In this document: positions 518 through 41,110 of the stretch, one piece after another
How the letters are laid out: each line of letters starts with the position of its first letter
Position numbering within the stretch: the stretch's first letter is position 1
Source: Jimgerdemannia flammicorona
Lineage: Eukaryota
DNA: 45,909 bases
NCBI GenBank assembly: GCA_003990765.1
Contig: RBNJ01000056.1
Span: 1-45,909, forward strand
Direction of reading: 5' to 3'
Position numbers and translations under genes: made by a program
The notes under the pieces: generated by a model
Told to the model about the DNA's origin: nothing
The model's input: the letters and a program-made list of their open reading frames with translations, nothing else
The model's database searches: none

Positions 518-548
518 GATGAAAATTGTTAAAGATTAAGCCTCTCCT

Positions 549-2884: not shown

Positions 2885-3324
2885 TCTATAGATCTGAATT
2901 CTTTCTTTCCTCTTTCTGTTTCCTCCAACTTCTTAACTTCTATAATCTTTGGCTAAAGAACTGAGAAGATCAACATCTGTACTAATTGGTCCTTCTTCTT
3001 GATTGGAAATGGAATCTTGGAGTTGTGATTTCTAGCAATAAGTAGTATCTCTCCAATATAATCTGAATCAATGACTCCTCCTTTAATTATAATCTCACTC
3101 TTAGTCAGACTGCTTGTCTTGAGGATTCTGATATGGTCTTTTGGAATAGTCATCTCCAGATCAGTTGTGAGTAGAGTAGTTATTTGGGGCTTAAGTATAG
3201 TTTTCTCTACTATAGTGATATCTATTCTAGCTGTATTCTCTAACTTATATTCTGATAGAACTGCATCAGGATGGATCCTCTGAATCTTGACCTTGATTTC
3301 TTCTTCATCTTTACTGTCTTTCAA
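2885..3324 (-). pseudogene. Retroelement-encoded trimeric dUTPase domain (degenerate)
   Basis: All five dUTPase motifs are recognisable though mutated: ARIDI (AGxD), TSSL (RSS), GGVIDSDYIGEI, DQLVQM and ERGKKEFRS (RGxxGFGS). One internal stop at 2953-2955. Confidence 0.88.
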
Positions 3325-3639
3325 GAGGGCTGACTATTTGTCATCCTCTTCCTCCTCCTTATCTTCTCCTACCTACTTCTCAAGAGCCTTCTGTTTCCTT
3401 TCATAGTAGATCTTCTTAATTCTGCTGGTATACTGGTAGCAGTTATTGATATACTCTATATAGTATATTCTGATCTCATGGAGGCAGACTCCTTATAGTG
3501 CATATTCTTTAATGATCCTCTTACACTAGTTCTCTTTACTGATCTATCTAACTTTCTTCTTTTTTTTCTGAGTAGTTACCATATAGACTTCTTTTTGCTT
3601 ACTTTTTTTTTCTTCCATCTCAGGCAGTACTCTCTTATT

Positions 3640-4010
3640 GACATTGATGGGAATTTGCATCTTCTGACCTCAGTAGATAATCTATATCTTCTAGGCATTT
3701 AGGTCAATTATTGCTCTGATTTTATGAAGTCACTGATTCCTAGTAAGGATGTCATAATTAGTAGTATTAGTTATGATCATGTCTACTGAGATTGTTGCTC
3801 CTCTGAACTTGATGGAAATATCTCAAATCTTTCTTAGGAGTGTGGCTCTTATTCTATCTGCTATAATAAATACCAACTTGGTTACTTCTTCAACCTCTTA
3901 ACCTAAGCAGTCTGCTGCTTTTTTGCTAAGAAGACATCCTCCTGCTCTAGTATCAATAATAGTCTCAAAGATTCTATCTTTAATTTGGCAGATTACATAG
4001 ATAGAGGTCT
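3640..4010 (-). pseudogene. Retropepsin-like aspartic protease domain of G-A (degenerate)
   Basis: FETIIDTRAGGCLLSKKAADCLG...NYDILTRNQ*L matches the D[ST]G and ILG.DWL pattern after G>A reversion. Confidence 0.75.
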
Positions 4011-5603
4011 TGTAATTATCTTCACTTTCTTCTTCAGAGTCTTCTTAAATATTATTGGTCTCAGTTGTCTTCCAACCTTGCTCTTTAGTTATCTCAGTAT
4101 ATCCATATCTCATTTGCTATCTGAATATAAGTATTTCTACCAGCTGGCCAAAAGTTGTATTGATATTTTATTAGCTAAGATCCTTGAAGATATTATACTT
4201 AAAGGTCTTGATTTTGCAAAGCTTCTTCTCCTTTTCTCTTTTACTAGCTGGAGTAGTACCTTAAATGATATCTTGAACAGCCTATTCCAGTTCCATATCT
4301 TGATCCATCTCTTTAGCTTGGCTTTCTATAGTAGTCTCTATCTGTTTTTCCACAGAGTTCTTCTTGAATCTCCCTGGTGGTCTCTTATAGGGTTGCTTGC
4401 AGACATGCTTCTTAACAGTCTCAGCAGAGTAGACTTTCTATTCTTCTTTATCTGATTCTCCAATCTCCTCAAAGGTGATAGTGTTGGCTTATTTCTTATT
4501 TCGAGTAGTATTGCTAGACTGGACCTTATACTTGATTTTGCTTATATGTATATTCATATAAGTAGTGACCTTCTTCTCCACAGGTATAGCAGATATCTTA
4601 CTTCTTGTCTGAGGTGACAGCAAACTTCTGAACTAGGCAGTAGTCTCTTTCTCTAATTTCCTTTACCACATCTCCTAGATGAGTAGTTATTTTGACAAAT
4701 TTCTTAGCAAGTTCCTCTATAGAGTCAATATTTCTCTACTACTCAGTAGCTCTTGACTGAGGTATATTTTAATTGATTACTGTGATAGGAATCACCCTAG
4801 TTGCCTTAGGTACTTTAATTCTAACTTCAGTAACTCTTTCTATTATATGAACTTGTAGATGTCTGGCTATTCAGTATCACTAAGTATAGGTGATCTTTTG
4901 TGCTAAATTCAGAACTACTGGTGATAAGTAAATGATCAGAACTATCTCTGAGTAGACTCTCTTCATAAAGATTGCTTCTGCTACTTAATCTCAAATGACA
5001 GTAGTATTATCTATAAGGATTATCTGATATTAGATTCTGGTATAGAATGTATTTAGATCTTTACTTATTTTTTAATATGTTGTATTGAGCTAATCCTTTA
5101 GTACTTGCTTGATCTTGTCTATATAATAGGTAGTTTAGAGCCAGGTCTTCTGTGCTACTAGTATGGTATTATCATTATTTTCTATATAGGTTGCAGCTGT
5201 AAATACTACTCTTGCTGATCCTTAGAGACTAAAGAGCATAAGAGCTACTTGCTATCTTACTGTCAGGGTCCTTATAGTAGTATACTACTTGAAGTTATTA
5301 ATGAATATAATGATTGATTCATCTGAAGTATATCTATAGAATACTGATGGTCTCATATCTATCTTGTCTGGATGTCTTGATTTGATTTGTATAGTTGTTT
5401 GAGTGGTAACAGTTGTTTGTTATTCAGCTTAAAAGTGAGGGATTTATCTTAAATTATTAACTAATGAGCACTAAGTTATAATATAGTAGACACATAACTA
5501 TATAAGTATATCAGATTTCTGTATCTTGAAAACTTGATCTTCTTTGATTCTGCAGAGTTCTTAGGATATAGGAGTGGGTGAGTTTGAAGTATATCTGCCT
5601 ATA

Positions 5604-5606
<3 letters not shown>

Positions 5607-5652
<46 letters not shown>

Positions 5653-8600
5653 GTCACTTGGACTCCATCTTTATTACCAGTCTATGAATAAGTATACAAT
5701 ATCACCACCCACTATCCAATCCCCCTAGGGGGGCCCCTCTCCACCTCTTTCTGGATAAAGACCACCCTCTCACCAATGACTCCAACTCTCCCACCACTCT
5801 GACCACAGATTTTCTCTACCAAGCAGTGCCTCTAACCCCTCTGCAGCCCCCAACCAAGCCACCAGCCTGTCAAGGTGTCCTCCATAAGGTACTGCCACTG
5901 TGATAACCGGCTTCCTAAGCTCTGTCACCTCTCCTCCTCAAAAACAAATAGCCAGTGACTGGCCAGCCCAACCCATATAGCCAATGCCCAGCCTAAGGTA
6001 ATCCACTCCACCTCTACCCCTCCTACCAATCGATCCTTCAGGTCCTCCCACCTCTCCTATACATCATCTTCCCTATGCCTCACCCCCAAGCAGTCCCCAA
6101 TGGCCCATCAAAAGTCTCCCAACACCTCACACTCTCCTAGCCAATGTTCTGGCATCTGTACAAATCCCCCTTCTTGCCCTACATTAAGGCACTCCTTACA
6201 GTCAAAGCAACCCCCCACAATAAGGTGTCCTGAGCAGAAGTTGAGCATCACATTCCTCCTCAGCATGTGCCACCAGACTACCCAGTACTTCAGCAGCATC
6301 CATTTTTTCACTGTGGTACTCCAGGTCCAAACACCATACCAGTCTCACTCCTCTCCAATTCCAACTCCTTGCCAACCACTAGGCCACAGATTCTGGCCCA
6401 GTCCTCTTTGGCATTCTACTCCATCACCAATGTTGAACTCAAGTAAAGGTACGCCACTCAGTAGAATACCATCCCATCTCCACATTGCTGGGTCCCAAGC
6501 CCTCTCCCCCTCATTCCCTTGCCAGCGAATACCAATGTGGTGTGCCCCCTCTGCAATCCCCCACCTGAAACCTTTATATCACAATTGTGCAGTGTTCTGA
6601 AGTCCAACTAAAGAGAGAAGATCACCAGTCGAGCCTCTAGATGATGACTGCCTCTCCCATACCTTCTGCAGCAGGGGAACCCAACCCCCTCCATGCAACT
6701 CCACTACCCTCTTAAGCCACCATACCCTCAAGCAATGTAGTCATTTGGGAAAGTCCACCAGCCCAAGACCACCTCTCACTACCAGTAGGGACAAGGTCTT
6801 CCAACTGATCTGACTCCATCTGCCAGCCCAAATCCATCCCTTGGCCACCTTCACCAATCTCTTCACTACCCAGGCTGGGAAGTCCAGATGATAAGCCAAA
6901 TACCACAGCTTTGGCAGCCAGTATACATTCAAAATCAAGATCCTTCCCACCAGAGAAAAGGGTCTTCCCCCCCAACCCTGCAGATCCTCCTCCCAAGTTC
7001 CAACTTGCTGCTCCCACTACAGCCTGGGCAGAACAGACCCATAGACTGACAAATAGATACCCAAGTACCACACTGCCTCACTGGTGGGGACTATTGTTCC
7101 AATAACCTCTCCTCCCACCAGGTCATTGCCTAGTACTATTGTTTCACACTTATGCCAATTCAGCTTTGCCCCAGAGTACTCCTTGTACCACTCCACTGTC
7201 TTTCTGAGCTTCTCGACATCAGCAATTGCTCCCAAACCAACCACCATGTCATCTGCAAAGGCTCCAACTTTCCAGCCAATGCCATAGATAGAGAGCCCCA
7301 CTATCCTCTGCCGAATTCTGTCCATTAGGGGTTCCAAGGAAAGAGCATACAAGATGGGGGACAGTGGGTCCCCCTGGAGCACCCCCCTACTCAGAGGGAA
7401 TGCTACCCCTCTATGCCCATTACACATGAGTGCAACCCTACTCCCTTCCAGTAGGCTGACCATCACTGACCAAAATTAGACTGGAACCCCAATTCTATCT
7501 AATACTCTCACCAGCCAGACTCATCACACCTGGTCATAAGCCTTCTCCTGGTCCAAGAAGACAAGATGCCTATCAAATCCACAGGCTCTAGCACCTTCAA
7601 TAACTCCATATACCCAGGCTGTACCATCTCTAATAAGCTGACCCCCTACAAAGCCCCTCTGCTCAACACCTACAATTTGCTGGGCTACCTTCTGTAGCCT
7701 TGCGACTACTACCTTAGTCACTAACTTTCTGTCCATATCTAGCAACATTATTGGCTGCCAGTTCTTCCAATCCTCTCACCTTCCTTTGTTCTTATAAAGC
7801 AGTGTCACCAGCCCAAGATCCTGCTCTCCCACTCATCTCCCTGACTACAATATAAAGTCACACAGTGCTGTCAACTCCCCCAATATGCCTGGGACTCTAA
7901 CCATTTGCTTCCAGAAGTCCCAGGGTAGGCCATCCTCCCCAGGTGCCATATCTGAGACTGTCGCAACAAGAACCTGGTAGATCTCCTCCTCCTTTATAGG
8001 CATCATCAGGTCACCTAGTCCCTTAACTTGTGGTGGGCACCAATCCTCTAATATTCAGTCAATGGCTGTAGCATCTGCCCCACCCTCCTCCTTACTCCAC
8101 AATTCACTCCATCACTCCTTCAGTGATCCAAGAATGTTCTGTACACCATACACTAGTACACTATCTGAGTCAAGCACCCCTTCCCACCGCTGTTGTACCC
8201 TTCTCACCCTAAGTGTCCTCATGAGAAACTTGGAAGGCCTCTCCCCTTCCTCCAGCCCCTGCCAATGAAGCCATGCCACCAGGCCTTGCATCCTTGTCTC
8301 TTCCTCTTCCCGCAGCATCTGTTGTAGTTCTCCAACCTCCATCTTCACCCTCATTAATCTCCAATCCTCTTCTCCCTCTACTATCATCAGTCTTGCCCAC
8401 TCCTCCAGGAGCCTAGCCAATCTAGTAGAAGCTCAATGCACTCTCTGCCTTTGCTACTTCCCAGCCTCTTGGCCAGCCTCACTCCAGTATATCCTGGCTA
8501 TCTCTTTCATCCTCATCCACCAAACCCCAATTGAGGCCCCCTCCTGCTACCAGTTCTCTATCTTCAGCTGAATGTCTCTAGCCCACTCCTCCCACCAGGA

Positions 8601-11509
8601 CTCATCATCTAACAAGGAGGAATTTAGGCACCAATGTCCAGAACCATCTCCACTTCCCCCAAAACACCCCTGTCCCAAAAGGCCCCAGTAATCTGACTAT
8701 GGACACCATTCCACCCCCAGCATCTTCCAAACATCGTGGCCCCAACAGTTGGCCATCAGAATCCAGTCAATTCTTATCCCCAGGCCTCCAGCCCAATGCA
8801 TATATACCCTCCTGTCCCTCCAGTACTCCCTACCAGCATCTACCAGTACTCCTAGCCTTTTGACTTTCTCTCACACCATCAGCCCCCCACTCCTGCTCTC
8901 AGCACCCCATCCTCCATCAGTTCTATCCAACTGTATATCCCGAACCATATTGAAATCTCCCCCAAGCATATCCACCCCAGCCTCAGTAAGGATCTCACTC
9001 TCCTGAAGCTCTTTCACCCAACCTACATGCTCCCCCCACACAGCAGAGCAGTAATAGGAGCCAACTATAACTGGCTCCCAGCCTGCACGAATCCACTCAC
9101 CCCAGACCAGTCTCTCCCCCCAGCTCCTCACATCTCTTATCTCCCCTTTGCCTTTCTGAACCAGAATCCTGACCTTGCTGTTCCAAATTGCCATGCTACT
9201 CCATTCCTTTATCCATTCTATCCTATCAGAATCATCCTCACACCTGATATCCTGCAAGAGGAAGAGATTAGCCTCCAATCCCTTCAGCCAAATAAATATG
9301 TTCCTATATTTAATAGCACCCCTTAGCCCATTCACATTCAAAGAAAAAATGTTAATTGTACTGTTTATAATGAAATACGATTTGTTCTCAGTCGATCTCT
9401 ACTGCTCTATGCTCATCTCCTCCTGTGCCATGTCCAGATTATGTTCTGCCATCACCTCCTCCTCTGTAGCCCTCTGAGCCTCCAATCCAGCCAACAGCTC
9501 ATTCATCTCCTCATTGGCCTTCTCCTCAAACTTCTCTCAGTACTCGATGCAAGCCTCCTGCCAAAGCTGCAATCCATGACACTTGTTCCAACAGTACTCA
9601 GCCCTCTCCCCAGTGATAACCACCATCTCTGCTTCCCACTCCTTGTCTACCTCATACCCTTCCTCCTCCAGATACACTGTGAGAATTTTCGCCTTCAGTG
9701 CCATTACCACTCCTTCCCCCTGCAAAATTCTTGCCCAGTGCTTATCACCTATTGCACGCAAGTCCACCTCCCCCAACTCTTCTGCTGTCAGGTTATTCAT
9801 CATCCTGCATATCCAAAGTAGGTTCCCCACCTCCTTCCCACCAGGGGTTGCTGGCCTCCCTCTATCTAGCATTGTGGTGTCAGCTCTGACACTCATGTCC
9901 TCATCCCATACCTCCAGGACATCCACCAGTTCCTCCTCCCTGGTCGCCACTATATGACCCCCATTCATTACTTCCAAAATGCTGAATTTCACCTGCTGAG
10001 TCCCCAGCATCATCATGTCCTCCCCAGTCTTGTTTCTGGAAGTCGGGCCATACCTGATAAGAGGAGAAGGAGTGGGGGAGTTCTTCCAGACCTCCTCCCA
10101 AACCTCCAAGGTGCCATCAGCATATGGGTCGACAATCTTCACCTCTTTTGCCTTCCCTGTCTCCACCCCATCATTCCCACTTCTCTCACCAGCCCAGATG
10201 CTTGCTTTGGCCCCTTTCATACCCATCTTCTCACTCACATCCTTCTGTGGTCTGCCCTCCAGTTTAGCCAGCAGATCCTTCTATGTATCTCTTCCTCCCC
10301 TGAGCCCTTTCCCACTACATCTTGTCCACTCAAATTCTCTTTCCATCTACCACCTCCAGGTGCATTGACTCTATGAAAGCCTTCCAGGCCTTTGCTCACT
10401 GCTCCACAGCCCCATCCAGTTCTTCCAGTACTTCTAATAAATCCTCTTCCTCCTCTTCACTTCCTTTCACCCTCATCACCTTGTACAAGATCACTCCCCA
10501 AACCATCACCAAAGGCCAGTCCCTCGCCTTCCCAGTGGCTTCTTTCCCAGCCAGCCAAATCCTCACATCCACATCCCCAGTCCTGAGCATGGTCCCTTCC
10601 CAGACCCTGAATCCGATATCTACCACCTCTTCATACTCCACCATGATATCCTCAACTCTCTTTCTCATCTCCATTGCCATCACCATGGACACTCCTTTCA
10701 CCAACAGTTGAACCACCCTCAGATCCCATCTCAAACATCTCACCATTGGAACACACACCTCCCCAATCACCAACCCAACCTTCAGTACCTCCTCCAGCAG
10801 CTCAGCCTCCTCAAAACCCACCTCCACACCCTCCAGTCCCTTCAGAAACTTCACCGAAGCAGCTCCTGCCACCTGCTTAGCGATAAGCCCCAGCACCATC
10901 TTCACCATCACCACTAAGCCCCAGAAGCATAGTGTAACTGTGAATGCTGCGATCAATTTCTTGAGTAATGGGGCCACTGTCAGGCCCATCATACTATCCA
11001 CCAAATCTCCTTGTCTTCCAAGCCCCAGCTGCTCAGCCCCACCAACAGCTATCACATCTGGATTTTTTTCCAGATTAGCAGTCCTGTTGCCATCAGCAGT
11101 TACACTCCCTCCAGCTACTACTTCCCCAGCTTCACTGCTCTCTCTTCCAAGGGCCACTCCCCCACACACCACCACCTTCTCGGTCTCCTTGCCCCTTCTC
11201 AGCCAGCCCTCCAGCTCTAATGCCTGCTGCCTCCCCTTTACCATCTCTACAAAGCTCGCCCTCCCAGACCTCTGTCCTCCACCAGTACCTCTACCCCTTC
11301 CTCATCCTCTCACCAGTAGCCCCCTCATGCCCCCCCTCAGGCCTGGACCCCTCCCAACTTGCTGCCATTTGAAAGTACTTGGGCTGCCCTGCCCAGTACA
11401 CACCTTAGCTCATCTCTCAGTTGTTATGTTGTTAGTCTCTTTACTCCAAAAATGATATCATGAGTACCTTCCAAATATTGTGTAATCTGAATGGTATCAG
11501 AGAAAGATG
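5607..11509 (-). mobile_element. Full-length L1/Tx1-like LINE, copy L-B (~5.9 kb) with poly(A) tail and TSD
   Basis: Poly(T) at 5607-5649. TSD ATCTGCCTATATAC at 5593-5606 and 11510-11523. ORF1 ~11427-9400 and ORF2 ~9368-5712 carry NVNGL, GGDFN, LDQEKAYD, QGDPLSP, AFADD, YLG, a C-terminal CxxC..H..C and the end PPRGIG*. Many stops. Confidence 0.95.
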
Positions 11510-11523
11510 ATCTGCCTATATAC

Positions 11524-11801
11524 TTACTAGTTCTCTTACTTTCTCTTTACTTTGAACTATTTTGATCTGAGATTTATTCACTTTAAATACTAGAGTTATT
11601 TATATAAGTTTACTAGCTATAAGATAGCTAAGTTATAACTATATTTCCTATGAGTCATACTTTAATATCTACAAAAAGTTTCCACATTTGTTAAATATGA
11701 CTGCTATTTGTATGGCTATATAATATTTGGAAATTGGATTTAGATATTACAATCAAATATCTATTCTTCTGATTTATATTACTAATTCAGATCAACTATT
11801 A
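11524..11801 (-). mobile_element. 5' end (putative LTR/leader) of Gypsy copy G-A, separated from its body by L-B
   Basis: Reverse complement aligns with 24978-25360. Homology begins at TAATAGTTGATCTGAATTAG (TGATGGTTGATCTGAATTAG in G-B, a TG start). Confidence 0.75.
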
Positions 11802-13277
11802 TACTGTGTAATATAGTATATTTATCTATATACTAAGTACTTACTGAAGATAGAAAATATACAAACAGACTTACTGAGTTATATCTATTCTAATCCTAAT
11901 AATTAGAAACTTTACTCCTTTATTTTTCAGCTTTTTCTTCACTAATGAGATCTGATCTATATAGATCTTTTTACCTCTCAGATGATCATATAGATCTCAC
12001 TCTTCTATAGCTAGAAAACCAATTCTGAAGTCTAGAGGATAGATGCTTTTTATCACTAATAGCTATCTATAGGAGCTTATACAAACTCTTCTAAAATTCT
12101 GCTCAACTATATCTTATATAAGATAAAGAGAACTATTATTTATATCTAATTTCCATTACTCTATTTTGATAGTAATAAAGCTGATAGTCCAAACTTCTGG
12201 AGATAGTGATAGCTCCTCTTGTTCTTCTCTCTCATTGAGTATTAGTAATAGTAAAGTAGATTTACTACTAAGATATTCTCATATTATTGATTAGTAGCAT
12301 TTTTCAGAAACTATAATATTAGTAGAAACAACTCACTATCTTATCAGGACTAGCATTTGAGTCTTATCATATATGAACTATGAGTTTATATATTAATATT
12401 ATATTTATTAGTATCATCAATAATATATTAATCTCTTTTATATATCTACTAAATAGCAGATTAACTACTTAGTTGATAAAGAAATGAGTATCTATTAACT
12501 TTATAGTATCTGAACTATTTTGGACTACTTGACTCTAGCTATTAATAGTATCTAATTTTCCAAACTTTCTATAGTCTTCTATCTTATTCAGAGAGCAAAC
12601 TTATACCTCTCTCTACTCAAAGATAAGGCCCAATAGTGGGATATCTCTACCCTTATCTAATAGTTAGACTCTCTAAACTTCTTCAATTTTATCAAACAGA
12701 GAGTCTTGCAAGATAAGAAGATATATATCCTCCTTGTACTTTATACTTTATAATATATAGCAAGTGACTTTGTCTATTATTAGACTGTAGTTAACTTTGG
12801 GGCAGCCAAGATAACTAATCTACCAAAATGATTCTTTCTATAGACATGATTAAAGAGTATATACTAAATATCTATTTTCAGACTTTATATCTCATCTTAG
12901 TCCTTCTGGAAGTTAAGGATATATACTCAGTATACTGGATTTTCTACTAGATATACAAATGAAAACTCTATACCCACTAACTAATAGTGACTATCTCTTT
13001 ATTAGCATATGGTTTCCCTATTACAATCTGACCACTAATTGCCTTTATAACTGGTTTTTAGAATATATAGTAGTCACTAGCATTAATTCTATTTACTATC
13101 TCTACTCTATCTATATTGAGTCCTCTACCAAAGCATTGAAAAGATAGATACCCATTGATGAGATGCTTAAGAGTGGAAACTGGAGCTCTAAGATCACCTT
13201 TGAATATCATTATCACTTATTCTACAGGATGCTGGTTCTTTCTCAATTCTCTCAGGCCATATCTCTCATTTATATAG

Positions 13278-13282
<5 letters not shown>
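11802..13282 (+). mobile_element. DIRS-type retrotransposon remnant: RNase H end, methyltransferase-like domain and tyrosine recombinase (all degenerate)
   Basis: ENIQTDLLS (~11853; N..AD.LSR), IDLFTS (~11961; IDLFAS), IDAF...AYTNSS (DAF..W...Y.xPP), WDIS (~12637) and YLFIS...SSTKALKR*IPIDEMLKSGNWSSKITFEYHY (12959-13215), the typical DIRS YR C-terminus. Domain order RH-MT-YR is that of DIRS elements. Confidence 0.78.
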
Positions 13283-13346
<64 letters not shown>

Positions 13347-14374
13347 CTATCTATCGCTTTATTGATGCAAAGCTAGTGTACATATACGATAAAATATTCT
13401 GGGAAATGCAGAATAAGGCAGACAAAAGGTCGAACTCAAACATATTTGGGAAATAGAGAGGGAATAATCCGATTATGCGCTCATTGTCTTCACATCTCCA
13501 CCCTCTTCGGTTTGTACCCAATTGCACCAGGGACTTTAACCCAGCTCTCATTCTCCTTCATCCCATCGAGGATTTCCAACAATAGCTTGTCATACTCCTC
13601 ATCACTCCTAGCACAGGCGCAATTAGCGGTTTGAGAGCCACAAACGCCGAGTGTATCGACTTGCTACACATGTCGCCTACAGGACCATGCCCTAGGGGAC
13701 ACGAAAGATAATCACCTCGCACGTCCACATGCCCCGCGTCTAAAAGCAGCGACGGTAATTGCTCTGAAATGGAAATGTCTGTACCTTGGGAAGCCATCAC
13801 TTAGGCTTTGTAATAGCGGTCGTAGGCAGCCGGATTAGTTAGTTGAATTCGGTGAGCTCGACAACACCGCCCGGGGCCGTGATCTGGTCGAGCTCACGGG
13901 TCGCGACGTGCCAGTCTGAAGGCAATCATCATGAGCCTCTGAAATACGAAGTCGAAGCTCTCGTCCTCGAACAGCAGACCTTCGAGTGTGTTCGCGCGCA
14001 TGAAGGAACAATTTTAAGGGATATCTTTCCTGGAAAAACGGTTGCGCAATCGATTCCGACGAAGGTGGAGTTGGTAATCCGAAGCCATTTCTATTATCCA
14101 CCTTCCGGACCACGTGGATTCCCTCCTCCAGATTTTTGTCAAGGGGTGCGCTAAAATTAGCGTTAACGAGATGCCGGATCACGTAGTGCTGATAATCGAG
14201 CTGGTTGAGCTCCTCGTTGTCACAGGGAAGCATGTAGTTTGTATTTCCCTCGGTCATGAATGCCCTCTTGTGGATGATGCGGAACCCTTCTGGGAAAGAG
14301 CTACCAGTGCTGTCGCTGGTCGGATGAAAGGGGAGTAGAAAAAATAACGGAAAGGATATATATACCATTGACGC
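13283..14374 (-). pseudogene. Processed pseudogene (retrocopy) of a class I SAM-dependent methyltransferase (LaeA/Methyltransf_25-like family)
   Basis: Reads YMLPCDNEELNQLDYQHY...GIHV/GRWIIEMASDY/STFVGID/NTLEGLLFEDESFDFVFQR/APGGVVELTE...AIGYKP, stop at 13490, with several frameshifts. AATAAA (13358-13363) lies 16 nt before a 59-nt poly(A) (13283-13341). 16-bp TSD CATTTATATAGTTCTC at 13267-13282 and 14375-14390. Confidence 0.9.
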
Positions 14375-14390
14375 CATTTATATAGTTCTC

Positions 14391-14830
14391 AAACACAAGG
14401 CCTCTATACTAGCCTGGTGCTCTACTTACCTATGGTCTACAAACAACCAACTCTAAAATGGTCTGGAACAAAGTGATGCTTAGTCCTAGACAGATGAGGT
14501 GCTGTAGGCACTGAAGTCTGTCCCAGACTTTGTGAGCATGTGGACAACCATGAAGAGTTGGTTTCCTGCCCTTGTCTGTCATTCTTAAACAACCCTACCC
14601 TCTTCCTTTCTTTATTGGGTTTTTGTTTTCTTTTTCTATCCTGTTTGGCTTCCTGGGCATCTTCGTTGCCCAGCCCCCATTTTCTCTCTGGCTCACGTGC
14701 CAAGCTTTTTGGGCTAAGGGACTCCACAGGAGTTGAGAGGTTCTTTTATTGGGACTACTGTCTTACTATATCTCAATCACATATGTCCGTAGAACATGTT
14801 ATTTCACACATAAGACATGTCTAAGACACT
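14391..14830 (+). mobile_element. Probable 3' non-coding continuation of the DIRS remnant
   Basis: Contiguous with the YR region once the retrocopy is removed. CpG-poor until ~14830, where CpG-rich DNA starts abruptly. Terminal repeats were not resolved. Confidence 0.4.
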
Positions 14831-16122
14831 ACAAATAAAGCACGCCATTGCCTTCGGAACGGCAGAAACCAACTCTTCACGGTCCTCCACAATGCTCGCA
14901 AAGTCTGGGACAGATTTCGGTGCCTACGGCACCTCGTCCGTCCGGGACTACGGAATGACGTATTCATAACCTGTGATCGACTGCGTCTGCAGCTCTGTCT
15001 CATTTCAGATACATTGTTTGCATGCTGCGGTTCAGGTAGAAAGCAAATATTCTGAATACCGTCCTAATTATATATTATATTACTGTATTTGTGCAGCAGG
15101 CGAGCCACAACGCTACAACCCAATTGCATTATGGCGAAGGAAACCAACGATGACTGGCCCAGTACTGTAATCAGCTGGCACAGACTCGTGTTCGTTGAGA
15201 TCAAGCACCAGACCAAACCCGAGTCCCAACGCGAGGGTCGAGATTGTACACAACCTCCATCCACTTATCCTCGCGTCCCCTTGCTGACTCCTCCACCCCT
15301 CCTGCCGACAAGGGAAAAAGATTTCACCTCCACCGTATTATCCTCAACAACTTCGCCGCCTTTGCCTCCTGCCGCAATCTGCAATCCTACCACCACACAC
15401 GCGACTACAACCTTATCGTGCGATTCCACCATTGCCATGCCTCCGCTCCCCAACAATCCCCCCGACAACATGACCCCAGCTCGGATATTCACACCCTCGT
15501 CGTCTAGCTTGCCATCTCCTGCTCCCATATCAAAGGCCTCGAGCTCATTTGTCCCCGTTCAAGCTCACCAGCGACGCAACCCTGAGCAAATCGCCACTTC
15601 TAATCTAAGAAGGGTCCGTGCACCAAATATTATGTTTCGAGTGGCGGACCCGTTGTGAGACACCAACGGCAAGCCTGTTATATGCCACATGCTATCTACA
15701 AGATGGATTCCATAAATATAACGCGCCCCATTCCCTGGGTTGGGCTGCATTTCGATAATTGACCGTTTGTGCTTTCGCGAGCACGAAATTACTCAATACC
15801 CGCACTTTGAAAATTCTCACGAGATAGCCCATTTTAAAAGATGTTTGGCTACCTTCAATTATCCAATGAGAGATCTATTCGGAGCGCGTGTCAATGGGAA
15901 ATGACCACAATTTCGTGCTTAAAGTGATCTCTAATCTAGGTTTCTTTCTACACTCACAGCTTATTGCTCATCGCTTGCGCGTTACGTTCATGTTTTTCCC
16001 GCACTCCTTTTCCGATAGGCCCGTCTCCTCTTCCAGTATTAATCTATTTTACTCGCTCAGTACGTACCTTAAAAAAAATAAAATAAATTAAAACCAAAAA
16101 AAAAATAACAAAGAAATATATA

Positions 16123-16125
<3 letters not shown>

Positions 16126-16216
<91 letters not shown>
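16126..16216 (+). repeat. Poly(A) run followed by (GA)n
   Basis: About 91 consecutive A followed by GGGAGAGAGAG. Confidence 0.95.
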
Positions 16217-18090: not shown

Positions 18091-18844
18091 TCATTTATAT
18101 GTAAATTAGCTTTAGTTAGTCTTACTCACTCATTATTTTTATTTCTAGTAATCTTGGTATTATAATAATAATAAAAGCAATTCTAATGGTATCAGACAGT
18201 ACAAACATAATCAGAACAGATGTACACCAGAGCTGTTCCAGATATATGCTAGAGCTTTTCCAGATATACGCTAGAGCTGTTCCAGGTACATACCAGATAT
18301 GTATCTAGGCCACGGAACAGTCCTCAAGATAATGCGCCATTGTGACTGCGAATTTGTATCATATGGACCGTGCGATTTTTCACATGTATCGGTCGAAATA
18401 GGTGACATGAGCTGAATAAGAATATTCAGCGTTTGATAGTCCAACACTGGGCCTTGGCTTTCATTCAACTTCATTGAACCGCAGTCAATTTTCACGTGGT
18501 CTTACCCTACTTCGCACCTCGTTAAGCAACCAATCCATTCCCAAGTTTTCCATTCCCCACCCATACCGCATGTTTAGTCTCTGGACCGGATCCTTAAAAC
18601 GACGTTCCTTCATGCTTTTTCTGCCCAAAAATAAAGACTAACTATATGATAGCGGAACGTTGATAGACAAGTGGGTAGGGGACTATCGCAAAATCGCCGA
18701 TGTGTCACTTTTGGGGATTAGGCTTTGTGAAACCATATGTCCTGACGATCTGGCGAAAGCCCCGTGACCGGATACGGTGAGACAAGTAAATACCATCATA
18801 AATAAGACATACCCGACTTTCTCACCAGTCACCCAACATACATC

Positions 18845-21010
18845 ATGAACGAAGACGATTACGATTACGAATCATGGAAAACAATTGAACTCGAAAGATA
18901 TGGGCAAGTGAAACTCTCGGATCCCATCACTAACATTCGCCTGCTCATCTCTGAATTGAAGGTATGCTATTTCATCCAAATGTCATACGTGCGGTTTTCG
19001 GCCTACTCCCCACACGCGCTGACACATTCTCACCCTCGAACAGACCACATACTGGGGGACCATCGATTCGATATTATGGTCCACAGTCAACGTTGTGGTT
19101 TTCGCCGCCTTCTGCTGGCTTCTACCCATTTGGACAGTGCTGCAATTCACGCTCCGCACCGCCTCTAAAAAAACCACCGGCATCCCACATGTGTATAAGA
19201 AATACAACGAGAAACTTACAAACGAATTCTGGCTTCAGCTTGTCGAAAAGCTGACTCACAATACGCAAGACGCTTCGTTCGACCTGGATCTCGCCGAATT
19301 CCATGCAGTACTGACGTCATTGGCTAATGAGCCCGTAGAGTTGGTTGATGACATAATCAAAATGTGGAATCGAGACATCGGGTTAACCTACCATCGATTC
19401 GGGCATGAAGGTGGGTTTGGTGGGGCGTGGTGTAACACTGTGCGAATAGCCACAATCTGATATGTAATGTTTCACGACAGGTTGTGTAATCACCATGGTG
19501 TATAGCGTGCAGAAGAACTTTGTGGTCCTTGCCTTCAAAGGTTCCAGCGTGTTCAATCTCTCAGAGTGGCTCATCCACGCCACGACACGAAAAATACCTG
19601 CCAAGAACAGCGTACTGCCAGGCCTGGTGCATGCGGTAAGCACCGTCAGCCGCAACTCGGATGACATGGTCGCAATCTTCAATACTCACACCACCTTGTT
19701 GGATTCTATGATGAATTGACAGGGTTTCTACAGCGCCCTTGGGTTCTCCACAAAGTCGAAAGCCACACCTGACATGGAGGGGTCGGCAACATTCGGGAAT
19801 GGTCAATACAAAGCACCTGTCGAATTCGATGTAAAAAGCGTGGACGTCACCGACGAAATCGAGGACCGCCATCTGGATGAAGTATACGAGAAGTACGATG
19901 GATCGGGAGAGGGCTTAATGAAGGTCAAGCTGATATACTTGAAGAGACAATTTGGGGAGCAGATTCCGCATTTGTGGATAACGGGACACAGCCTTGGCGC
20001 GGCCACAGCCACCATTTTCACATCCGTGTTGCTTTGGAAGAGAACAAAAAGGGGAAAAATCTCCGGGATTTACGGTGGCGTGGACATCGATTCCGTAAGT
20101 CGTTTTTGTTTCTGAACTGACTGATGGGTTGAATCATAGTTAAACTATTTGCATTTGTCCTCTTGCAGTGGTTCAAACTCCACGGCACGTTTACGTTCGG
20201 AAGCCCGCGTGTAGGAGACTCCGAGTAAGTCATATAGATAGATGCCATTACCTTGGTACATGTCACATGTCTTCCAATTAACCGAATTTGTTTGGTTCTC
20301 GACGGACGATGTATACGATAGCTGGAAAGATGCCATGGAAACAATTCTCCAAAATTCGTACCAGTTCCGACCGTGGGATCAGCCCAAATACCAATTCTGG
20401 AGGTGAGTTCGCTCCCATCCCTTCAGCACAAACGCTATTTTTTTTTTTTTTTTTTTTTCTTCAAGCCTCTCAATCCTAACCAAACCCCACTTTTCATTCG
20501 TAGGATTATCAACGCCAACGACATCGTCTGCTCCATCCCGCCAACGACTCTAGGCAGCTTCTTGAGTAAACAAGATAAATCCTCCAGAGCACCTGGCTTG
20601 ACGCTTAACGATTTCCACCATCTTGGTACACCACTGACCCTGGGGTACCATGGAAGTTTTCACAACTGGGATAAGGAGCGGACTATCCAAGACATGCTCA
20701 GGAACTTGGTGACGGAGTGGGTGTCCGTACCGGTAGACCTTTTGAGGGGTTCGTACTCCGAAAAAATCATGGCCATTTTGACTTTCACGACGCTGGGGAC
20801 GATCGGGCTCGTTAGGGATCATGACATAGGGTATGTTGTATTTTCTTCTTTATGGATTTGCATTTTGACTTTGTTCTCGTGACTCACGTTTTTCGCACGC
20901 TCCAATGTAGAGAATATATCAAGAACCTTCAAACTTTGGCAGACCTGTATGAGCGATATGAACGAAGTTATGCGGCGAAAGCAAAATTGGAAGGCCCAAC
21001 AGATGATTAA
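18845..21010 (+). CDS. Class 3 (fungal triacylglycerol) lipase, alpha/beta hydrolase, 8 exons, 524 aa
   Basis: Exons 18845-18961, 19044-19410, 19481-19635, 19723-20094, 20169-20224, 20322-20402, 20504-20830 and 20911-21010. All introns are GT-AG and the exons sum to 1575 nt in frame. Motifs VLAFKGS, VHAGFY, ITGHSLGAA, TFGSPRVGD, RIINANDIVCSIP and DH give a full Ser-Asp-His triad. Confidence 0.93.

Positions 21011-21046: not shown

Positions 21047-21122
<76 letters not shown>
21047..21122 (+). repeat. Poly(T) run downstream of the lipase
   Basis: About 76 consecutive T. Confidence 0.95.
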
Positions 21123-21123
<1 letters not shown>

Positions 21124-21299
21124 TTAGTTTATCACTATTATTATTTTTGCTTTCAATTTTGCTTTGTTTTCACCGTTGTCGTCTCGCTGCCAAATCTCGA
21201 AATGGCAAAATTTATAAATAAATTGAGTCTTACGATGCACAGAACAACTATCTACTGTAATGCTACGGGGGCTCACACTGTTCGTAGATCGGGTCACGA

Positions 21300-21948
21300 A
21301 AGTCGGATTGTTTGAGGAAGTACACTCAGTGGTTGTGCGGAATACGTCGAGACCTTCGGGTGGAACTCGAGCAGGAAGCGGGATTCGGAGGGAAGCGGAA
21401 TTTGGACGACAGGGAGTCGGAAGGGGGAACGGAATTCGGACGACAAGAAGTTGGAAGGGAAACGGAGTCCGGACGACAAGTCGGAAAGGGGAAACAGAAT
21501 TCGGGCGAGGGAACGTGAAGTAAATTCAGGTAGGAGACGAGGGGGAATTCGGATGAGGGATATGTTGGGATGGACGTGCGGGATCAGAACAGGATTAGCT
21601 GAACACTGGCAAGCGGAATTCGAAGGGGGGAAGCGAATTCAGATGGAAAACGGATGAGGGACCCCGAGTGGGACAGAATTCGGAGGAGGGATGTGTTGGA
21701 GAGGATTTGGAAACGGACGTCGGGTTGAGCTGAACTCAGGCAGGCGGAATTCGAAGGGAAAACGAATTCAGAATTCGGGCGACGGGAAGTCGGAAGAGTC
21801 GGTGGAAACGCACTCGGAAAAGGACCCCCGGTCGGAATATGTGGAAAGGGAACTTGGAAAAAGAGACATGAGAAAAATAGAGGTGCTGGAATGGAAAGGA
21901 TGTAAACACAGAAGGAAAGGAGAACTCGAAAAAGAATGCTAGAATTTG

Positions 21949-22005
<57 letters not shown>
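21300..22005 (+). repeat. Purine-rich low-complexity repeat with recurring (G/C)GGAATTC(G/A)G, ending in poly(A) at 21949-22005
   Basis: About nine GAATTC copies among GGAAG/GACGA units. CpG retained. Confidence 0.7.
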
Positions 22006-34930: not shown

Positions 34931-35137
34931 TGCATTCTACTCCTCTTGCACAACCCTCATGTATTCCTCCACCTCCCTCACCCTCATTTCTCAGATTGCA
35001 AATAATATGTAATTTAGAAATAGGTTTTAAAAGAGATTTCAAAGAGATTCCAAACGAGATTTTGAAGAGATTCTGAAAGAGCTTCTGAAAGATGTTATAG
35101 CTTTTGAACATTTAAGATATCAAAAGCTTACTTTCAT

Positions 35138-35140
<3 letters not shown>

Positions 35141-35177
<37 letters not shown>

Positions 35178-38100
35178 GTCACTTGGACTCCATTCCTTTA
35201 TTAACACCCCTCTATCCCATATAAATACAGTGATCCCACCCCCTATCCAATCCCCCTAGGGGGGCCTCCTCCCCCTACCTCTTCCCGAGGAAAGACCACT
35301 TTGTCTAACACCACCGCCACCCTCCCACCACTCTGCTCACAGATCCTCACCACCAAACTGCAATGGCGTCCCCCCTGAGGACCCCAACCCACCCACCATC
35401 CAGTCAGCAGATCCCCCAACAGCCCCTCCCACCTTAACACCTTCTCCTGCAGCCCCAACCACTGCCCTTCCTCAAATACAAAAAGTCAATGTCCTGCCAG
35501 TCCCACCCAAACTGCCAATACCCATCCTACAGTGAGCCAACTATTATCCACCCCACCCACAAGCCGAGATCGCAAGTCCCCCCAGCGACCCCCCTCCCCT
35601 ACCAGCCTACACCCCACATCCAGTCTATCTCCTATTTCAGTCCAAAATTCCCCCAAAACCTCACACTCTCCAAGCCAATGTTCAGGCATCTGTATATGAC
35701 CCCCAGCTCACCCAACATCATAACACTCCTCACAGTCGAATTGTCCACCCTCCACCAAATACCCCATGCGGAAATTCAGCATGACATTCCTCTGCAACAT
35801 TCTCCACCATACCACCCAGAACTTGGGAGGAAGCCACCTCCACACCTCTGCACTCCAAGACCAGATACCAGCCCAGTCCCATTCCTCGCCGATCCCTGCC
35901 ACCTGCCAGCCACTCGGCCAAAGATCCTGGCCAAGCCCCCGCTGACAGTCAACTTCCTCCCCAATATCGAATGAAGCAAGTGGAGCGCCCCCCAGGAGCA
36001 GTCTATCCCACCGCCATATATTAGGCCCCCAAACTGCCTCCCCCTCATTGTCTTGCCAGCGCAGACCAATTCGGTGTGCACCATCTGCCACCCCCCACCA
36101 AAAGCCCTTGAACTGCATCCTCTGAACTCCATTCAGCCCCACCAAAGAGAGCAGATCTCCAGAGGACCCTCGAGGGGATGTTTGCATCTCTCATATCTTC
36201 TGCAGCAGAGGCACCCAACCTCCGCCCTGTAGTTCCACAGCTCTCTTCAACCACTAGGCTCGCAAGCAATGCAGCCTCTTAGGAAAATCCACCAGGCCAA
36301 GACCCCCCCTGACTACCGGCCTTGCCAGAGTATCCCAACTGACCTGGGACCTCCTCTCTGCCCAAATCTATTCCCGAGCCACCTTTGTCAGCTTCTTCAC
36401 CACCCACACTGGGAAGTTGAGGTGATATGCCACATACCACAGCTTGGGGAACCAATATATATTCAGGATTGACACCCGCCCAGCTAGAGAGATATAGCAG
36501 CCTCCCCATCTTCTAAGGGTCTCCCCCCAAACATTCACCCTGTTCTCCCACCACACTCGTGGCAAGACCAAACCATATACAGAGAGAAAGATGCCCAGAT
36601 ACCGCACCATCTCACCAGTAGGGACAATTGTTCCAATGATGTCCCCACCCACTAGTCCATTCCCTAACACCATTGTCTCACACTTATGCCAGTTGAGCTT
36701 TGCTCCTGAGTGAGCCTCATACTATTCCACAGTCTCCTGAAGTGCCTCTACATCTGCCACAGACCCAAGTCCAACCACCATATCATCAGCAAAGGTCCCA
36801 CCTTCCACACTATACCATATATAGAGAACCCTGCCACCTTTCGGTGAATCCTATCCATCAACAGCTCCAGCAAAAGGGCATAGAGAATAGGGGACAGAGA
36901 GTCCCCCTGAGGAACTCCTCTTCCCAAGGAAAATGCCCTTCCATGGTGACCATTACACATCAGAGCTGCCCAACTGCTCTCCAGCAGACCCACCATAGAG
37001 GCCCTAAATCTTGGTGGAACCCCAATTTGGTCCAGTACCTTGCCCAGCCACACCCGCCATACCCGGTCATAGGCCTTCTCCTGATCTAGAAAGACCAACC
37101 TTCCATCCAGTCTACAGGCCCCGGCCCCTTCAATGACATCATGAACCCATGCAGTTCCATCTCTTATAAGTCTGCCCCCAACAAAGCCCAGCTGCTCCTC
37201 CCCCAGCACCTGTTGGGCAACTTTCTGTAGCCTTGCGACAATCACCTTCGTCACCATCTTCCTGTCCATATCCAGAAGCATGATCGGCCTCCAGTTCTTC
37301 CAGTCTTCCCTCCTCCCCTTGTCTTTGTACAATAAGGCCACCAGCTCAAGATCCTGCTCTCCAACCCACTCACCACTCTGAAGGACATGGTCACAAAGAG
37401 CAGCCATCTCCCCCAAAACTCCGGGGATGTTTACCATCTTCTTTCAGAAGTCCCATGGCAATCCATCCTCCCCTGGCACTGTCCCAAGCTTAGTTGCTGC
37501 CAGGACACTCTGGATCTCCCCTCCCTGCACTGGTAAAATCAAGTCACCCAGACCAGCTACTTGTGGTGGCCTCCACTCTTCCAGTATATCTGCAATCTCC
37601 ACCTCATCAGCACCCCCTTCTCCCTCACTCCACAGGCCCTGCCATCTCTCCTTCAAAACCCCTAAGATTTGTTGCATGCCATGTACCATGTCCCCATCAG
37701 CATCCAGGACCCCATCCCACCGATTTCTCACTCTCCTAGCTTTGAGAAGTCTTGATAAGTACCTAGTAGGCCACTCCCCCTCCTCAAGCCCCTGCCACTG
37801 TAGCCTAGCAGTCATACCCCGCATATGAATCTCCTCCTCTTCCCTCAACACCTGTTGTAGTTTCACTATCTCCAATTTCGCCCTCTCTATCCTCCAATCC
37901 TCCACCCCAACAACCGTGAGCAAATCCGCCCAATCCATTTGTAGTCTCCTCAGCCTGCTGGAAGCACACCTCATATGCCTCCTCCTCTGCCTCCCAGCCT
38001 CTCTACCAGCCCCTCCCCAATAAACCCTCACAGCCTCTTTCAATCTCATCCAACAGACATCCACAGGCAAACCCTCGCGCCTCCAGATAAAAACTTTCAC

Positions 38101-41032
38101 CTGAATGTCCTCCACCCATACTTCCCACAACCCCTTCTTAGCCAGCAGGGAGGAGTTAAGGTGCCAATGTCCGGGTCCATCTCCACTCCCCCCAAACTGC
38201 CCCTGCCCCAACAGTCCTCAGTGATCAGACCATGGGCACCACTCCACTTCCAATGCCTTCCAAACATCTGCACCCCAGCACTCTGCCATCAGAATCCAGT
38301 CAATCCTTGTGCCCAAGCCATTCACCCAATATGTGTAGACCCTGGCATCACCCCACCTTGTTCTGCCCATATCCCCCAGAGAGCTCAATGTCTCCACCTC
38401 CTCCCATGCATCCAGACCTCCACTTCTACCCCTGGCACTCCTCCCTCCATCAGTTCTGTCCAGATGCAGATCCCTAACCATATTAAAGTCCCCACTGAGC
38501 ACATCAACCCCTTCCTCCAAGAGAATACCCTCCTCCAGCAGCCCCCTAATCCACGCAGTCCTCTCACCTCTAGCCACAGGGCAGTAGCAAGAGCCCACCT
38601 TCACCGGTTCCCACCCTGGCCGATGCCAATCTCCCCAGACCAAGAAATCACCCCAGCTCCTGATTCCCCCCAAGTCTCCTCTGGCCTTCCTCACCAGAAT
38701 TGCTACCTTTCCAAACCAAGCAGTAGCCCCACCCCATTCCCTAGTCCACTCTACCTGATTGTCCTCATCCTCACACCAGACATCCTGTAGTAAAAAGAGA
38801 TCAGCCTCCAATCCCTTGAGCCAAGAGAAAATGTTCTTATGCCTCCCAGAGCCCCTTAACCCATTCACATTCAAGGAGAAAATGTTGGTTGTACTGTTCA
38901 TAAAGAATAATGTTATATCATGTTCCCATCCTCTACAAGTCCACATTCCACTCCTCCTGCACCAAGTCCAAGTCCCATTCAGCAGCTAGTTCCCTCTCCC
39001 CAGCTTCCCGGGCCTCCAACTCTCCCAGAAGTTCTACCATTACCCCATCTTCATGCTCCTCAAAGTCCTCACGATATTCCAGACAGGCCTCCTGCCAGAG
39101 CTGTAGACCATGATGCTCTGCCCAACAGTAGACTGCCTGCTTACCAGCCACCATCCCCAGCTCAGCCTTCCTCACCTCATCAACCTCATACCCCTCCTCC
39201 TCCAGAAAGATTTCCAGAATCTCTACCTTCAGCGCCTCCACTATACCATCTCCACGCAGAATCCATGCCCAATGCTCCTCAGGCATCGCCCGCAAGTCCA
39301 CTTCCCCCAAAGCCTCTGCTGTGAGATTATCCATCACCTTGCACATCCACAACAAGTTCCCCACTTCTTTCCCTCCCAGAGTCCCCAGCCGCCCTGCATC
39401 CAACATCGTGGTGTCCACTCCTACACTGGCAGCCTCATCCCACTCCTCCTCAGGGACATCCACCAGCTCATCCTCACCAACTGCCACCACCTGACCCCCT
39501 TACATCACATCAGGGACCCTAAAGTGCACCTGCTGGGCCCCCTGCATCTGTGTATCCTCCGTCTTCCCTCTCTTCCCAACTGGGCCTCTCCTGATAAGTG
39601 GGGGGGTGGCATCCAACTCTGGCTCCCACACTTCGAAGGTATCATCAGCAAATGGGTCCTTGTCCAGTATCTTCCCAGCCTCTGCCTCCTTCACCTCCAC
39701 CTCCTCTCCTCCTTTACCGGCCCAGACACTGGCCTTAATGCCTCCAGACTCCTCAGCCCCAACCGACTTCTCCTTCATTCCTCCAGTCATACTTGCCAAC
39801 AGCTCCCTCTGCCTCTTGTATCCCTGGGCCCGCTCCCACTGCTTCTTATCCATATGGATATGCTTCCCTCCTACAACCTCCAGATGCGTCGACTCCTCAA
39901 ACAGTTTCCAGGCCTTCGCCCTCCTCTCCACAGCACCACTCAACTCCTCCAGTACCTCCAACAAGTCCTCCCTTTCACCCTTGACACCTTGCAGTTGATG
40001 GCCCCCCACATCAGTACTGAGGGCCAGTCACTCATCTTCCCTGTGGCCTCCATCCCCACCAACTGAATCCTTACATCAACATCACCTGTCCTGATCATTG
40101 TCCCCTCCCACAACTGAAAGCCAATGTCCACCACATCGCCATACTCTACTATCACCTCCTCCACCCTCCTCCTAGTCTCCTCCTTTGTCACAGTAGGCAC
40201 CCCCTTCACCAGCAGCTGTACCACCCTGGGGTCCCACCTCAGGCAGCACATCATTGGAACCATCATCTCACCCACTGCCACTCCAGTCTTCATTGCCTCT
40301 TCCAGTGGGCCTGCCTCCTCGAAGCCCACCTCGACTCCCTCCAGGCCCTTCAAGAACTTCACCAAGGCCGCCCCAGCCACCTGCTTCGAGACAAGCCCCA
40401 AGACCATTCTCGCCGTCACTGCCAAGCCATGGAAGCACAGTGTCACTGCAAACTCCGAGATCGACTTCCTGAGTAATGGTGCCACCACCAGCCCCGTTAC
40501 ACCATCAGCCAGATCTCCCCTCTGCATCGGGAACCCCTGTCCCCCCTGTCCATCAGCCATCACATCTCTTTTTTTTTCCTCCTGATTCACCATTACGCCA
40601 CCATCAGCAGTCCCGCCACTACCCCCAGCAGCTACCCCACTTCTCCCACCTCCCACCGACGAAGGCCCAGCTCCCCCAGCATTCCCAGCCTTCTTCTTCC
40701 CCTTCCCTCCTGTCTGTCCACTACGATCCCCCATCGGCCAACCTCCTGTCCTCAGCATGTCTGCAAAGCTCCTTCCCTGTAGCCCTCTAGCCCCCCCTCC
40801 AATGCTGCTTCCACTACCCAAGCTGCCCTGCCCACCTGAGCCACCAAAAGACCCCATTCCCAGTCCATACCCTCTCCCAACATGCTGTCAGTTGAAAGCC
40901 CCAGGTCCACCTGACCTAGTACGTGCATTGGCTTGCTTACTAGTCGACATTGCCTTAGTATCTTTCTCCAATAAATGACTCGAAAGTGTGTTGTAAAAGT
41001 GTGTGTAACACGAATTGTAGTGGAGAAAGGTG
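35141..41032 (-). mobile_element. Full-length L1/Tx1-like LINE, copy L-D (~5.9 kb) with poly(A) tail and TSD, nested in the hAT
   Basis: Poly(T) at 35141-35174. TSD TTACTTTCATCTC at 35128-35140 and 41033-41045. ORF1 40950-38933 and ORF2 38901-35243 (APE, RT, zf-RVT-like, ends PPRGIG*), with stops and frameshifts. Confidence 0.95.
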
Positions 41033-41110
41033 TTACTTTCATCTCTCATTCTTTTCATCTTATCCTTCACTTTGTCTCATCCTTTACTTCGCCTCACTTA
41101 ATTCACCACT

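Follow-up and report, generated by a model that had tools for sequence, protein, structure and literature searches.

Processed pseudogenes are the classic footprint of the activity of L1, the mammalian long interspersed nuclear element (LINE), and are known in plants; in fungi, to our knowledge, they have hardly been surveyed. The element described here is an insert of 1,092 bp on the minus strand, at positions 13283-14374 of a 45,909-bp stretch of DNA (contig RBNJ01000056.1; the whole stretch is called the window below) from what is apparently an early-diverging fungus. It carries a broken methyltransferase reading frame and a long poly(A) tail and lies between the two copies of a 16-bp target-site duplication (TSD).

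In mammals, L1 exercises a "relaxed", poly(A)-based choice of template, as described in passages of PMC3747384 and PMC2104539. After the L1 model presented in parts of these papers (PMC2104539, PMC3747384), target-primed reverse transcription by a LINE of the apurinic/apyrimidinic endonuclease (APE) type has as its signature a 16-bp TSD combined with a poly(A) tail. Like the processed pseudogenes of mammalian L1, the insert lacks introns and corresponds to an RNA from close to the 5ʹ end as far as the poly(A) site, with a long pure tail after AATAAA, a TSD of 16 bp and no LINE sequence. By analogy, these features would imply the same poly(A)-based "relaxed" template choice for this insert. It differs from the mammalian cases in its host, whose closest proteins are those of Jimgerdemannia flammicorona, and in its template, which was seemingly the RNA of a pseudogene.

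In the fungus Magnaporthe grisea, the MGL LINE gives rise to chimeric retropseudogenes, termed MINE, in which template switching has fused non-coding RNA to the 3ʹ part of the LINE; passages of PMC2104539 describe direct repeats of 10-20 bp at the flanks of these products. The present insert resembles MINE, as portrayed there, in that a fungal LINE reverse transcriptase (RT) copies cellular RNAs and direct repeats flank the products. Unlike MINE, it contains nothing of a LINE: one mRNA-like RNA was copied in full, down to its own poly(A) tail. LINE-fused chimeras of this Magnaporthe kind are the fungal cases met with in the literature searched. A 2017 review describes retroposition, in a part of its text, as little pursued in fungi (PMC5470649), and a keyword search of open-access text returned no paper on processed pseudogenes in Mucoromycota.

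The insert is very probably a young, LINE-made processed pseudogene derived from the RNA of a methyltransferase-derived locus, with a template that was most likely already non-coding. The hallmarks of retroposition, the colinearity with proteins, the broken frame and the presence of LINEs of matching anatomy are direct observations, and LINE-mediated retroposition in trans is well supported. The coordinates of the features are collected in Table 1.

Table 1. Features of the insert, of its presumed source RNA and of the two LINEs bounded by TSDs
Feature	Positions	Strand	Description
Upstream (5ʹ) target-site duplication	14375..14390	-	GAGAACTATATAAATG in element sense; exact 16-mer adjoining the first base of the insert
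Probable ancestral start codon	14366..14368	-	ATG 6 nt from the insert's 5ʹ end, sharing the frame of the homologous N-terminal part
Retrocopy body	13342..14374	-	1,033 nt: short leader, disabled methyltransferase frame, 3ʹ untranslated region
Class I S-adenosylmethionine (SAM)-dependent methyltransferase homology	13510..14320	-	Frameshift-aware alignments to P0002 and P0014; tblastn frames
Exon-exon junction 1	14174..14175	-	Probable intron of the source locus absent here; 84 extra letters in X2 record 12
Exon-exon junction 2	13936..13937	-	Probable second source-locus intron absent here; contig departure in X1 and X2
Polyadenylation signal AATAAA	13358..13363	-	16 nt (13357-13342) before the tail; read directly
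Pure A59 tail	13283..13341	-	T59 on the plus strand; directly adjoins the 13267-13282 repeat
Downstream (3ʹ) target-site duplication	13267..13282	-	Exact 16-mer adjoining the tail
LINE_B	5593..11523	-	Body 5650-11509, A43 tail 5607-5649, 14-bp TSD 5593-5606 and 11510-11523; RVT_1
LINE_D	35128..41045	-	Body 35175-41032, A34 tail 35141-35174, 13-bp TSD 35128-35140 and 41033-41045

Target-site duplication, tail and insertion site

The two boundaries of the insert are marked by CATTTATATAGTTCTC, a 16-bp direct repeat whose copies agree at 16/16 positions (both strands read over 13000-14700) and cannot be extended on either side. When up to two mismatches are allowed, the 16-mer has only these two matches in the window, whereas 0.09 are expected from shuffled sequence and none of 100 shuffles reaches two. 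By simple arithmetic, the chance that a given 16-mer recurs within ~1.1 kb is ~3e-7 (~1,100/4^16). The perfect duplication reported in the original prediction is thus borne out, its two exact copies being the only ones in the window. The same is true of the polyadenylation signal, the 16-nt spacer and the A59 tail, all read directly on the minus strand, which place the tail at the polyadenylation site of the RNA itself.

The longest open reading frame (ORF) of the region, of 180 aa, is opened by an ATG at 14377-14375. Because this codon lies wholly inside the 16-bp repeat, it is target DNA, as had been proposed. The ATG at 14368-14366 is, from its position and frame, the likely ancestral start of the methyltransferase frame.

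Searched by blastn against the rest of the window, the body of the insert matches only itself, so that one copy is present in 45.9 kb. It likewise has no blastn similarity to the LINEs of the window, with which its 3ʹ end has only AATAAA and poly(A) in common. The TSD, the AATAAA with its tail, the lack of LINE sequence and the colinearity with proteins described below together uphold the earlier reading of the insert as a retrocopy made in trans by target-primed reverse transcription.

The insert had also been placed within a DIRS element. Pfam finds no RT, RNase H or tyrosine recombinase domain in the flank ORFs of at least 75 aa over 11524-16070, and blastn finds no second copy of the insertion site in the window; that host element is not confirmed. 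Parts of the flanks (11500-11800 and 14822-14972) are matched by many diverged contigs, which makes them repeats of some kind. As for terminal repeats, the site has only a 93-bp inverted repeat (85%) in the right flank of the insert, with arms at 14481-14573 and 14858-14950. The latter arm is matched by contigs of high depth (up to 540) and so belongs to an abundant repeat.

A disabled methyltransferase frame

The insert shares ~51% identity, over residues 23-309, with class I SAM-dependent methyltransferases of Mucoromycota (Jimgerdemannia flammicorona RUP48898.1 and relatives). Its sequence is colinear with this part of the 310-aa protein P0002, with only small gaps, none of them intron-sized; in scripted, frameshift-aware alignments, 135/266 aligned pairs are identical to P0002, and in a frameshift-aware alignment to P0014, 115/250. 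The insert also retains the regions that follow motif I in these proteins and their N-terminal Y-x-LP-x-D-x-E-x-x-RLD-x-QH block, which we take to be typical of LaeA-like fungal methyltransferases. It departs from them in the deletion of motif I (LDxGCG) and in the six breaks of its frame.

The frame changes lie near 14107-14110, 14073, 14027-14033, 13917-13926, 13802-13823 and 13605-13608, and the first of these goes with the loss of the six-residue SAM-binding motif I. Two or three TAA stops, depending on the alignment, are added to them: 14017-14015, ~13841 and, in the P0014 alignment, ~13803. Errors of assembly were considered as the cause of the frameshifts and rejected, since independent contigs derived from short reads agree with the window at these places. 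The glycine-rich motif I expected of a class I SAM-dependent methyltransferase is thus missing from the window copy, and the intact ORF expected of a functional retrogene is missing too, the longest ORF starting in the TSD and showing homology only over its residues 19-90 or so. The region had been described as an intronless coding region; the colinearity and the lack of intron-sized gaps agree with the first adjective, but "coding" is too generous for a frame broken so many times.

Protein searches with the pieces of this frame agree on the family. With the 180-aa ORF as query, HMMER in an exhaustive search returned 57 proteins at E<=0.001, all matching only about residues 19-100 of the query. 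The six of them that were looked up are all Jimgerdemannia flammicorona (Endogonales, Mucoromycota) SAM-dependent methyltransferases or unnamed proteins, and three full-length homologues match Pfam Methyltransf_25/11/23. Run on the separate frame pieces of the insert, Pfam gives only a sub-threshold Methyltransf_11 fragment (E 0.14). Word-indexed protein searches with the 180-aa ORF (among near lengths) and with the 80-aa C-terminal ORF (among longer lengths) returned no match in a collection that apparently lacks the organism's own proteome. Judged by its sequence, the insert is a relic of the methyltransferase family and not a working gene.

The probable source RNA and its putative introns

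The source of the insert can be approached through contigs from two runs, X1 and X2 (one organism, two studies; 0.41-0.47 of sampled words), which were placed on 11500-16000 at a likeness of at least 80%. Positions 13269-13356 were masked in this placement, and contig depth gives no copy number. Together, the contigs span the insert from 13357 to 14354 (X1) or 14359 (X2) at ~99-99.5% identity. At least five differences from the window are common to X1 and X2 (13649, 13730, 13866, 14159 and 14327), and there are 18 more beyond those listed. The contigs stop at 14354 and 14359 with no loose end, and the 5ʹ end of the RNA therefore probably lies close to the insert's first base. Depth falls to 0 over 11802-13311, 14369-14670 and 14973-15425, which means only that no contig was placed there; both insert junctions and their flanks fall within these intervals (including the bins 13161-13311 and 14369-14519).

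Two sites within the body look like places from which introns have been removed. At junction 1, X2 record 12 (1,259 letters) has its 84 extra letters between 14175 and 14174, directly after the codons for HYVIR. At the same codon position, after DYQHYMAR, the homologue P0004 carries 12 inserted residues and then runs off frame, as would be expected of a protein model that reads through an intron at this site. At junction 2, contigs from both X1 and X2 depart from the window with loose letters that begin with GT in the sense of the gene (GTGTGCATTTT...). Other contigs cross these sites colinearly with the window, X1 record 6 bridging 14175|14174 and X1 record 4 bridging 13937|13936. As a whole, X1 and X2 look like RNA-sequencing data for a gene whose introns, at least two in number, appear to be missing from the window copy.

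A further contig of X2 skips 93 nt on the minus strand (13691-13783), a segment with GT..AG ends in gene sense that lies within conserved coding sequence. This skip looks like cryptic or alternative splicing of the pseudogene RNA, and the joint, seen in this one contig, is a further pointer to RNA.

The probable state of the source locus before copying can be read from X2 record 12. This contig aligns with 0 gaps over 13936-14175, a stretch that contains three of the frameshifts and the TAA at 14017-14015. Its 84 extra letters mean that it does not come from the window copy, and the apparently intron-bearing locus would therefore have had these defects before it was copied. At least four defects are common to the two, namely three frameshifts (near 14107-14110, 14073 and 14027-14033) and one stop (14017-14015). 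What was copied was probably the spliced transcript of a pseudogene, and the copy, coming from an already defective template, would have been without enzymatic function and dead on arrival.

These results modify the original prediction in three respects. It named the mRNA of a host methyltransferase as the template; the features of a mature RNA remain, but the shared defects point to the RNA of a pseudogene. The intron-containing parent that it called for is probably represented, indirectly, by the 84 extra letters and the GT departure in the contigs. Lastly, the proposed contribution to expansion of the methyltransferase family is not supported by this copy, which is dead and was probably made from pseudogene RNA.

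An additional contig, X1 record 5, is ~80-85% identical to the insert and carries 163 letters in place of the window's 143 nt at 14013-14157. It is probably a more distant, expressed paralogue in which motif I is still present, and its extra length is about what would be needed to restore motif I and the frame.

Resident LINEs and the presumed source of the enzymes

Poly(A)-tailed LINEs with APE and RT domains are present in the window, and two full-length copies match the insert in tail and TSD length (LINE_B and LINE_D; Table 1). Exo_endo_phos and RVT_1 domains are recognized by Pfam in several LINE copies of the window, with E values of 1.3e-12 and 1e-19, respectively, in LINE_D. When A residues hidden in the tail are counted, the TSDs of LINE_B and LINE_D reach up to 16 and 14 bp, and the similarity in TSD length (13-16 bp) noted earlier between the insert and the local LINEs is confirmed. 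Both LINEs end in ...AATAAAG..GGAGTCCAAGTGACTAT-A(n), and that 17-mer is found at these two ends only.

Among solved structures, the best relative of the LINE_D RT is human LINE-1 ORF2p (PDB 8c8j, 9hdo, 8sxt; E 4e-16, residues 42-201), ahead of R2 (1.7e-8); the PDB holds few LINE clades, so this closeness to L1 is a weak guide to clade. What is left of the L1/Tx1-like affiliation proposed earlier is this closest solved RT. Human LINE-1 additionally shares with the local LINEs the order of APE followed by RT and the AATAAA-poly(A) 3ʹ end. The local LINEs, which are decayed, differ from it in that no Transposase_22-type ORF1 or Cys-rich motif is found: the ORF1 region of the two copies gives no Pfam match, and neither LINE_B nor LINE_D shows a CCHC-type or other Cys-rich pattern, both being decayed. 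In element sense, the three nick sites read ..CTAGT|AAGTAT, ..GAATG|AGAGAT and ..TGTTT|GAGAAC, and all three have a purine-rich TSD start in common.

LINE_B and LINE_D combine perfect TSDs and pure tails with broken ORFs, which is the same pattern as that of the methyltransferase copy. It suggests that trans-mobilisation of defective RNAs is routine in this genome.

Other LINE remnants show a longer history. Two plus-strand pieces, 27231-31057 and 42983-45017, match LINE_D positions 3-3823 and 3817-5854 at 73% identity. They are therefore the two parts of one older LINE, split by a nested insertion of 11.9 kb that includes LINE_D and its TSDs. At the 3ʹ end of the split element, AATAAA is present and the poly(A) tail is gone. 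The sense strands of the LINEs are strongly biased to G over C: on the plus strand, GC skew is about -0.5 over the minus-strand LINEs (1-2700, 5650-11509 and 35175-41032) and +0.35 to +0.55 over the plus-strand LINE regions (27000-31000 and 42000-45000). The sense strand of mammalian L1, in contrast, is A-rich.

Proposed mechanism and points against it

The presumed source of the enzymes is a resident LINE, poly(A)-tailed and L1-like, whose endonuclease and RT would have acted in trans on a capped, spliced and polyadenylated RNA of the methyltransferase-derived locus as template. After a nick by the endonuclease in the bottom strand, at ...GTGTTT|GAGAAC..., reverse transcription, primed on the poly(A) tail, would have run through the whole RNA, and a second nick, staggered by 16 bp, would have produced the 16-bp duplication. 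Recognition of the template would have been through the poly(A) tail, because the insert has no 3ʹ sequence in common with the LINEs.

Several observations weigh against this account, and they concern both the source RNA and the enzymes. On the side of the RNA, the run type of X1 and X2 is a guess (RNA). The source locus is known from contigs alone, not as genomic DNA. The 84-letter insertion is only putatively an intron. Beyond 13936, at least 752 letters of X2 record 12 have no counterpart in the stretch; this would be a long intron for a fungus, and the letters may come from a rearranged or a different locus. On the side of the enzymes, LINE_B and LINE_D are only 67% identical to each other, and many stops and frameshifts interrupt their ORFs, so that no intact enzyme source is seen in the window. 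The APE ORF has no relative among solved structures at E<=0.01. Furthermore, unlike the mammalian L1 pseudogenes with their TTTT/AA preference, the three nick sites, which are the only ones available, show no clear motif of the TTTT/AA type.

Alternative explanations

The insert might instead belong to a multi-copy family of non-autonomous retroposons that arose from a methyltransferase pseudogene, its immediate template being another retrocopy. A template that was already non-coding would suit such a family. Moreover, the insert seems to be a whole RNA from near the 5ʹ end, so that an internal or downstream promoter could travel along with it, and mobilisation of defective RNAs is shown here by the LINEs that are defective yet keep pristine hallmarks. 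Against this stand the single copy in 45.9 kb, with no sign of further processed copies, and an exact 40-mer from the insert that had 0 matches in metagenome contigs. A family of this kind is accordingly judged unlikely.

Decay may also have followed insertion rather than preceded it: the mRNA of a working methyltransferase would have been retrocopied, and the ~99.5% contigs would be the retrocopy's own transcripts or DNA. The colinear contigs (X1 records 3, 4 and 6; X2 records 9-11) can be assigned to neither parent nor copy, and with the run type only guessed, this order of events keeps some room. However, the contig with the 84 extra letters has the same frameshifts and stop without a gap, and no contig covers either junction or flank. 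The ages of the parts also disagree, in that the pure A59 tail and the 16/16 TSD speak for a young insert whereas nine disablements in ~930 nt speak for long decay. Decay after insertion is therefore held to be quite improbable, and the copying of an already defective RNA remains the preferred account.

A third explanation dispenses with retroposition altogether and takes the insert as an intronless fragment, duplicated at the DNA level or brought by chance to lie beside an A/T homopolymer of the genome, the direct repeat being fortuitous. Long A/T tracts with no detectable TSD are indeed common in the window (A91 at 16126-16216, T76 at 21047-21122 and A57 at 21949-22005), which makes the tail by itself weak evidence. 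The combination of features is not weak: the 16-mer exactly adjoins both the tail and the first base of the RNA-like unit, AATAAA stands 16 nt before the tail, none of 100 shuffles gives two 16-mers, and the contigs stop within the insert, none running into the flanks. This explanation is very hard to credit.

Copying by the RT of a long terminal repeat (LTR) or DIRS retrotransposon through template switching is hinted at by the dUTPase ORF at 2956-3333, which may point to other retroelement classes nearby, and by the earlier placement of the insert inside a DIRS element, but is highly improbable given that no LTR or element sequence lies beside the insert, that the flank ORFs of at least 75 aa hold no DIRS domains and that a 16-bp TSD with A59 is the signature of an APE-type LINE, matched by the local LINEs in tail and TSD length.

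Significance

In mechanism and anatomy, the insert is a well-supported L1-type processed pseudogene and a clean example in an under-surveyed lineage. A complete example found alongside LINEs of matching anatomy indicates that cellular RNA can be acted on in trans by a poly(A)-tailed LINE of a fungus. A search image for a genome-wide census is supplied as well: a 13-16-bp TSD together with AATAAA and a long tail of pure A. A caution for such a census is that an intronless copy with perfect hallmarks may stem from a dead gene, and counting it as family expansion misleads.

A broader proposal is made tentatively, and is somewhat less likely to be right than wrong: that the LINE of this early-diverging (Mucoromycota, Endogonales-like) fungus has a mammalian-type "relaxed" choice of template, accepting in trans any polyadenylated RNA, even one from a dead gene or a dead LINE, and was active in this way very recently. 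The recent date follows from the pure A59 tail, the perfect TSD and the difference of only ~0.5% between the copy and its expressed source. If the proposal is true and such retrocopies are common genome-wide, RNA-mediated duplication would play a part in the large expansions of gene families and genomes in these fungi. In addition, trans-mobilisation and cis-preference could be studied in this lineage as a natural non-mammalian system.

Other features of the window

The remaining long homopolymers of the window (A91, T76, A57, T21 and T20) were examined as candidate retro-insertions and not counted, since no repeat of at least 10 bp was found within 9 kb. At 16071-16216, an A-rich run ends in the pure A91 and is followed by (GA)n, with no TSD found; it could be the tail of a decayed plus-strand retroelement or a microsatellite. 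At 21047-22005, the T76 and A57 tracts bracket an 826-bp G-rich stretch of ~17/34-bp GGAAGCGGAATTCGGA-like repeats, and no TSD was found for either tract.

Two further regions with ORFs were also seen. On the minus strand, in an AT-rich stretch between two LINEs, the ORF at 2956-3333 has a dUTPase domain (E 3.9e-14) and may be part of another class of retroelement. On the plus strand, 18806-20882, which may be a gene with introns or a pseudogene, holds a series of ORFs in different frames, with the T21 homopolymer internal to it (20438-20458) and a Lipase_3 match containing a GHSLG motif at 19720-20112 (E 1.2e-6).

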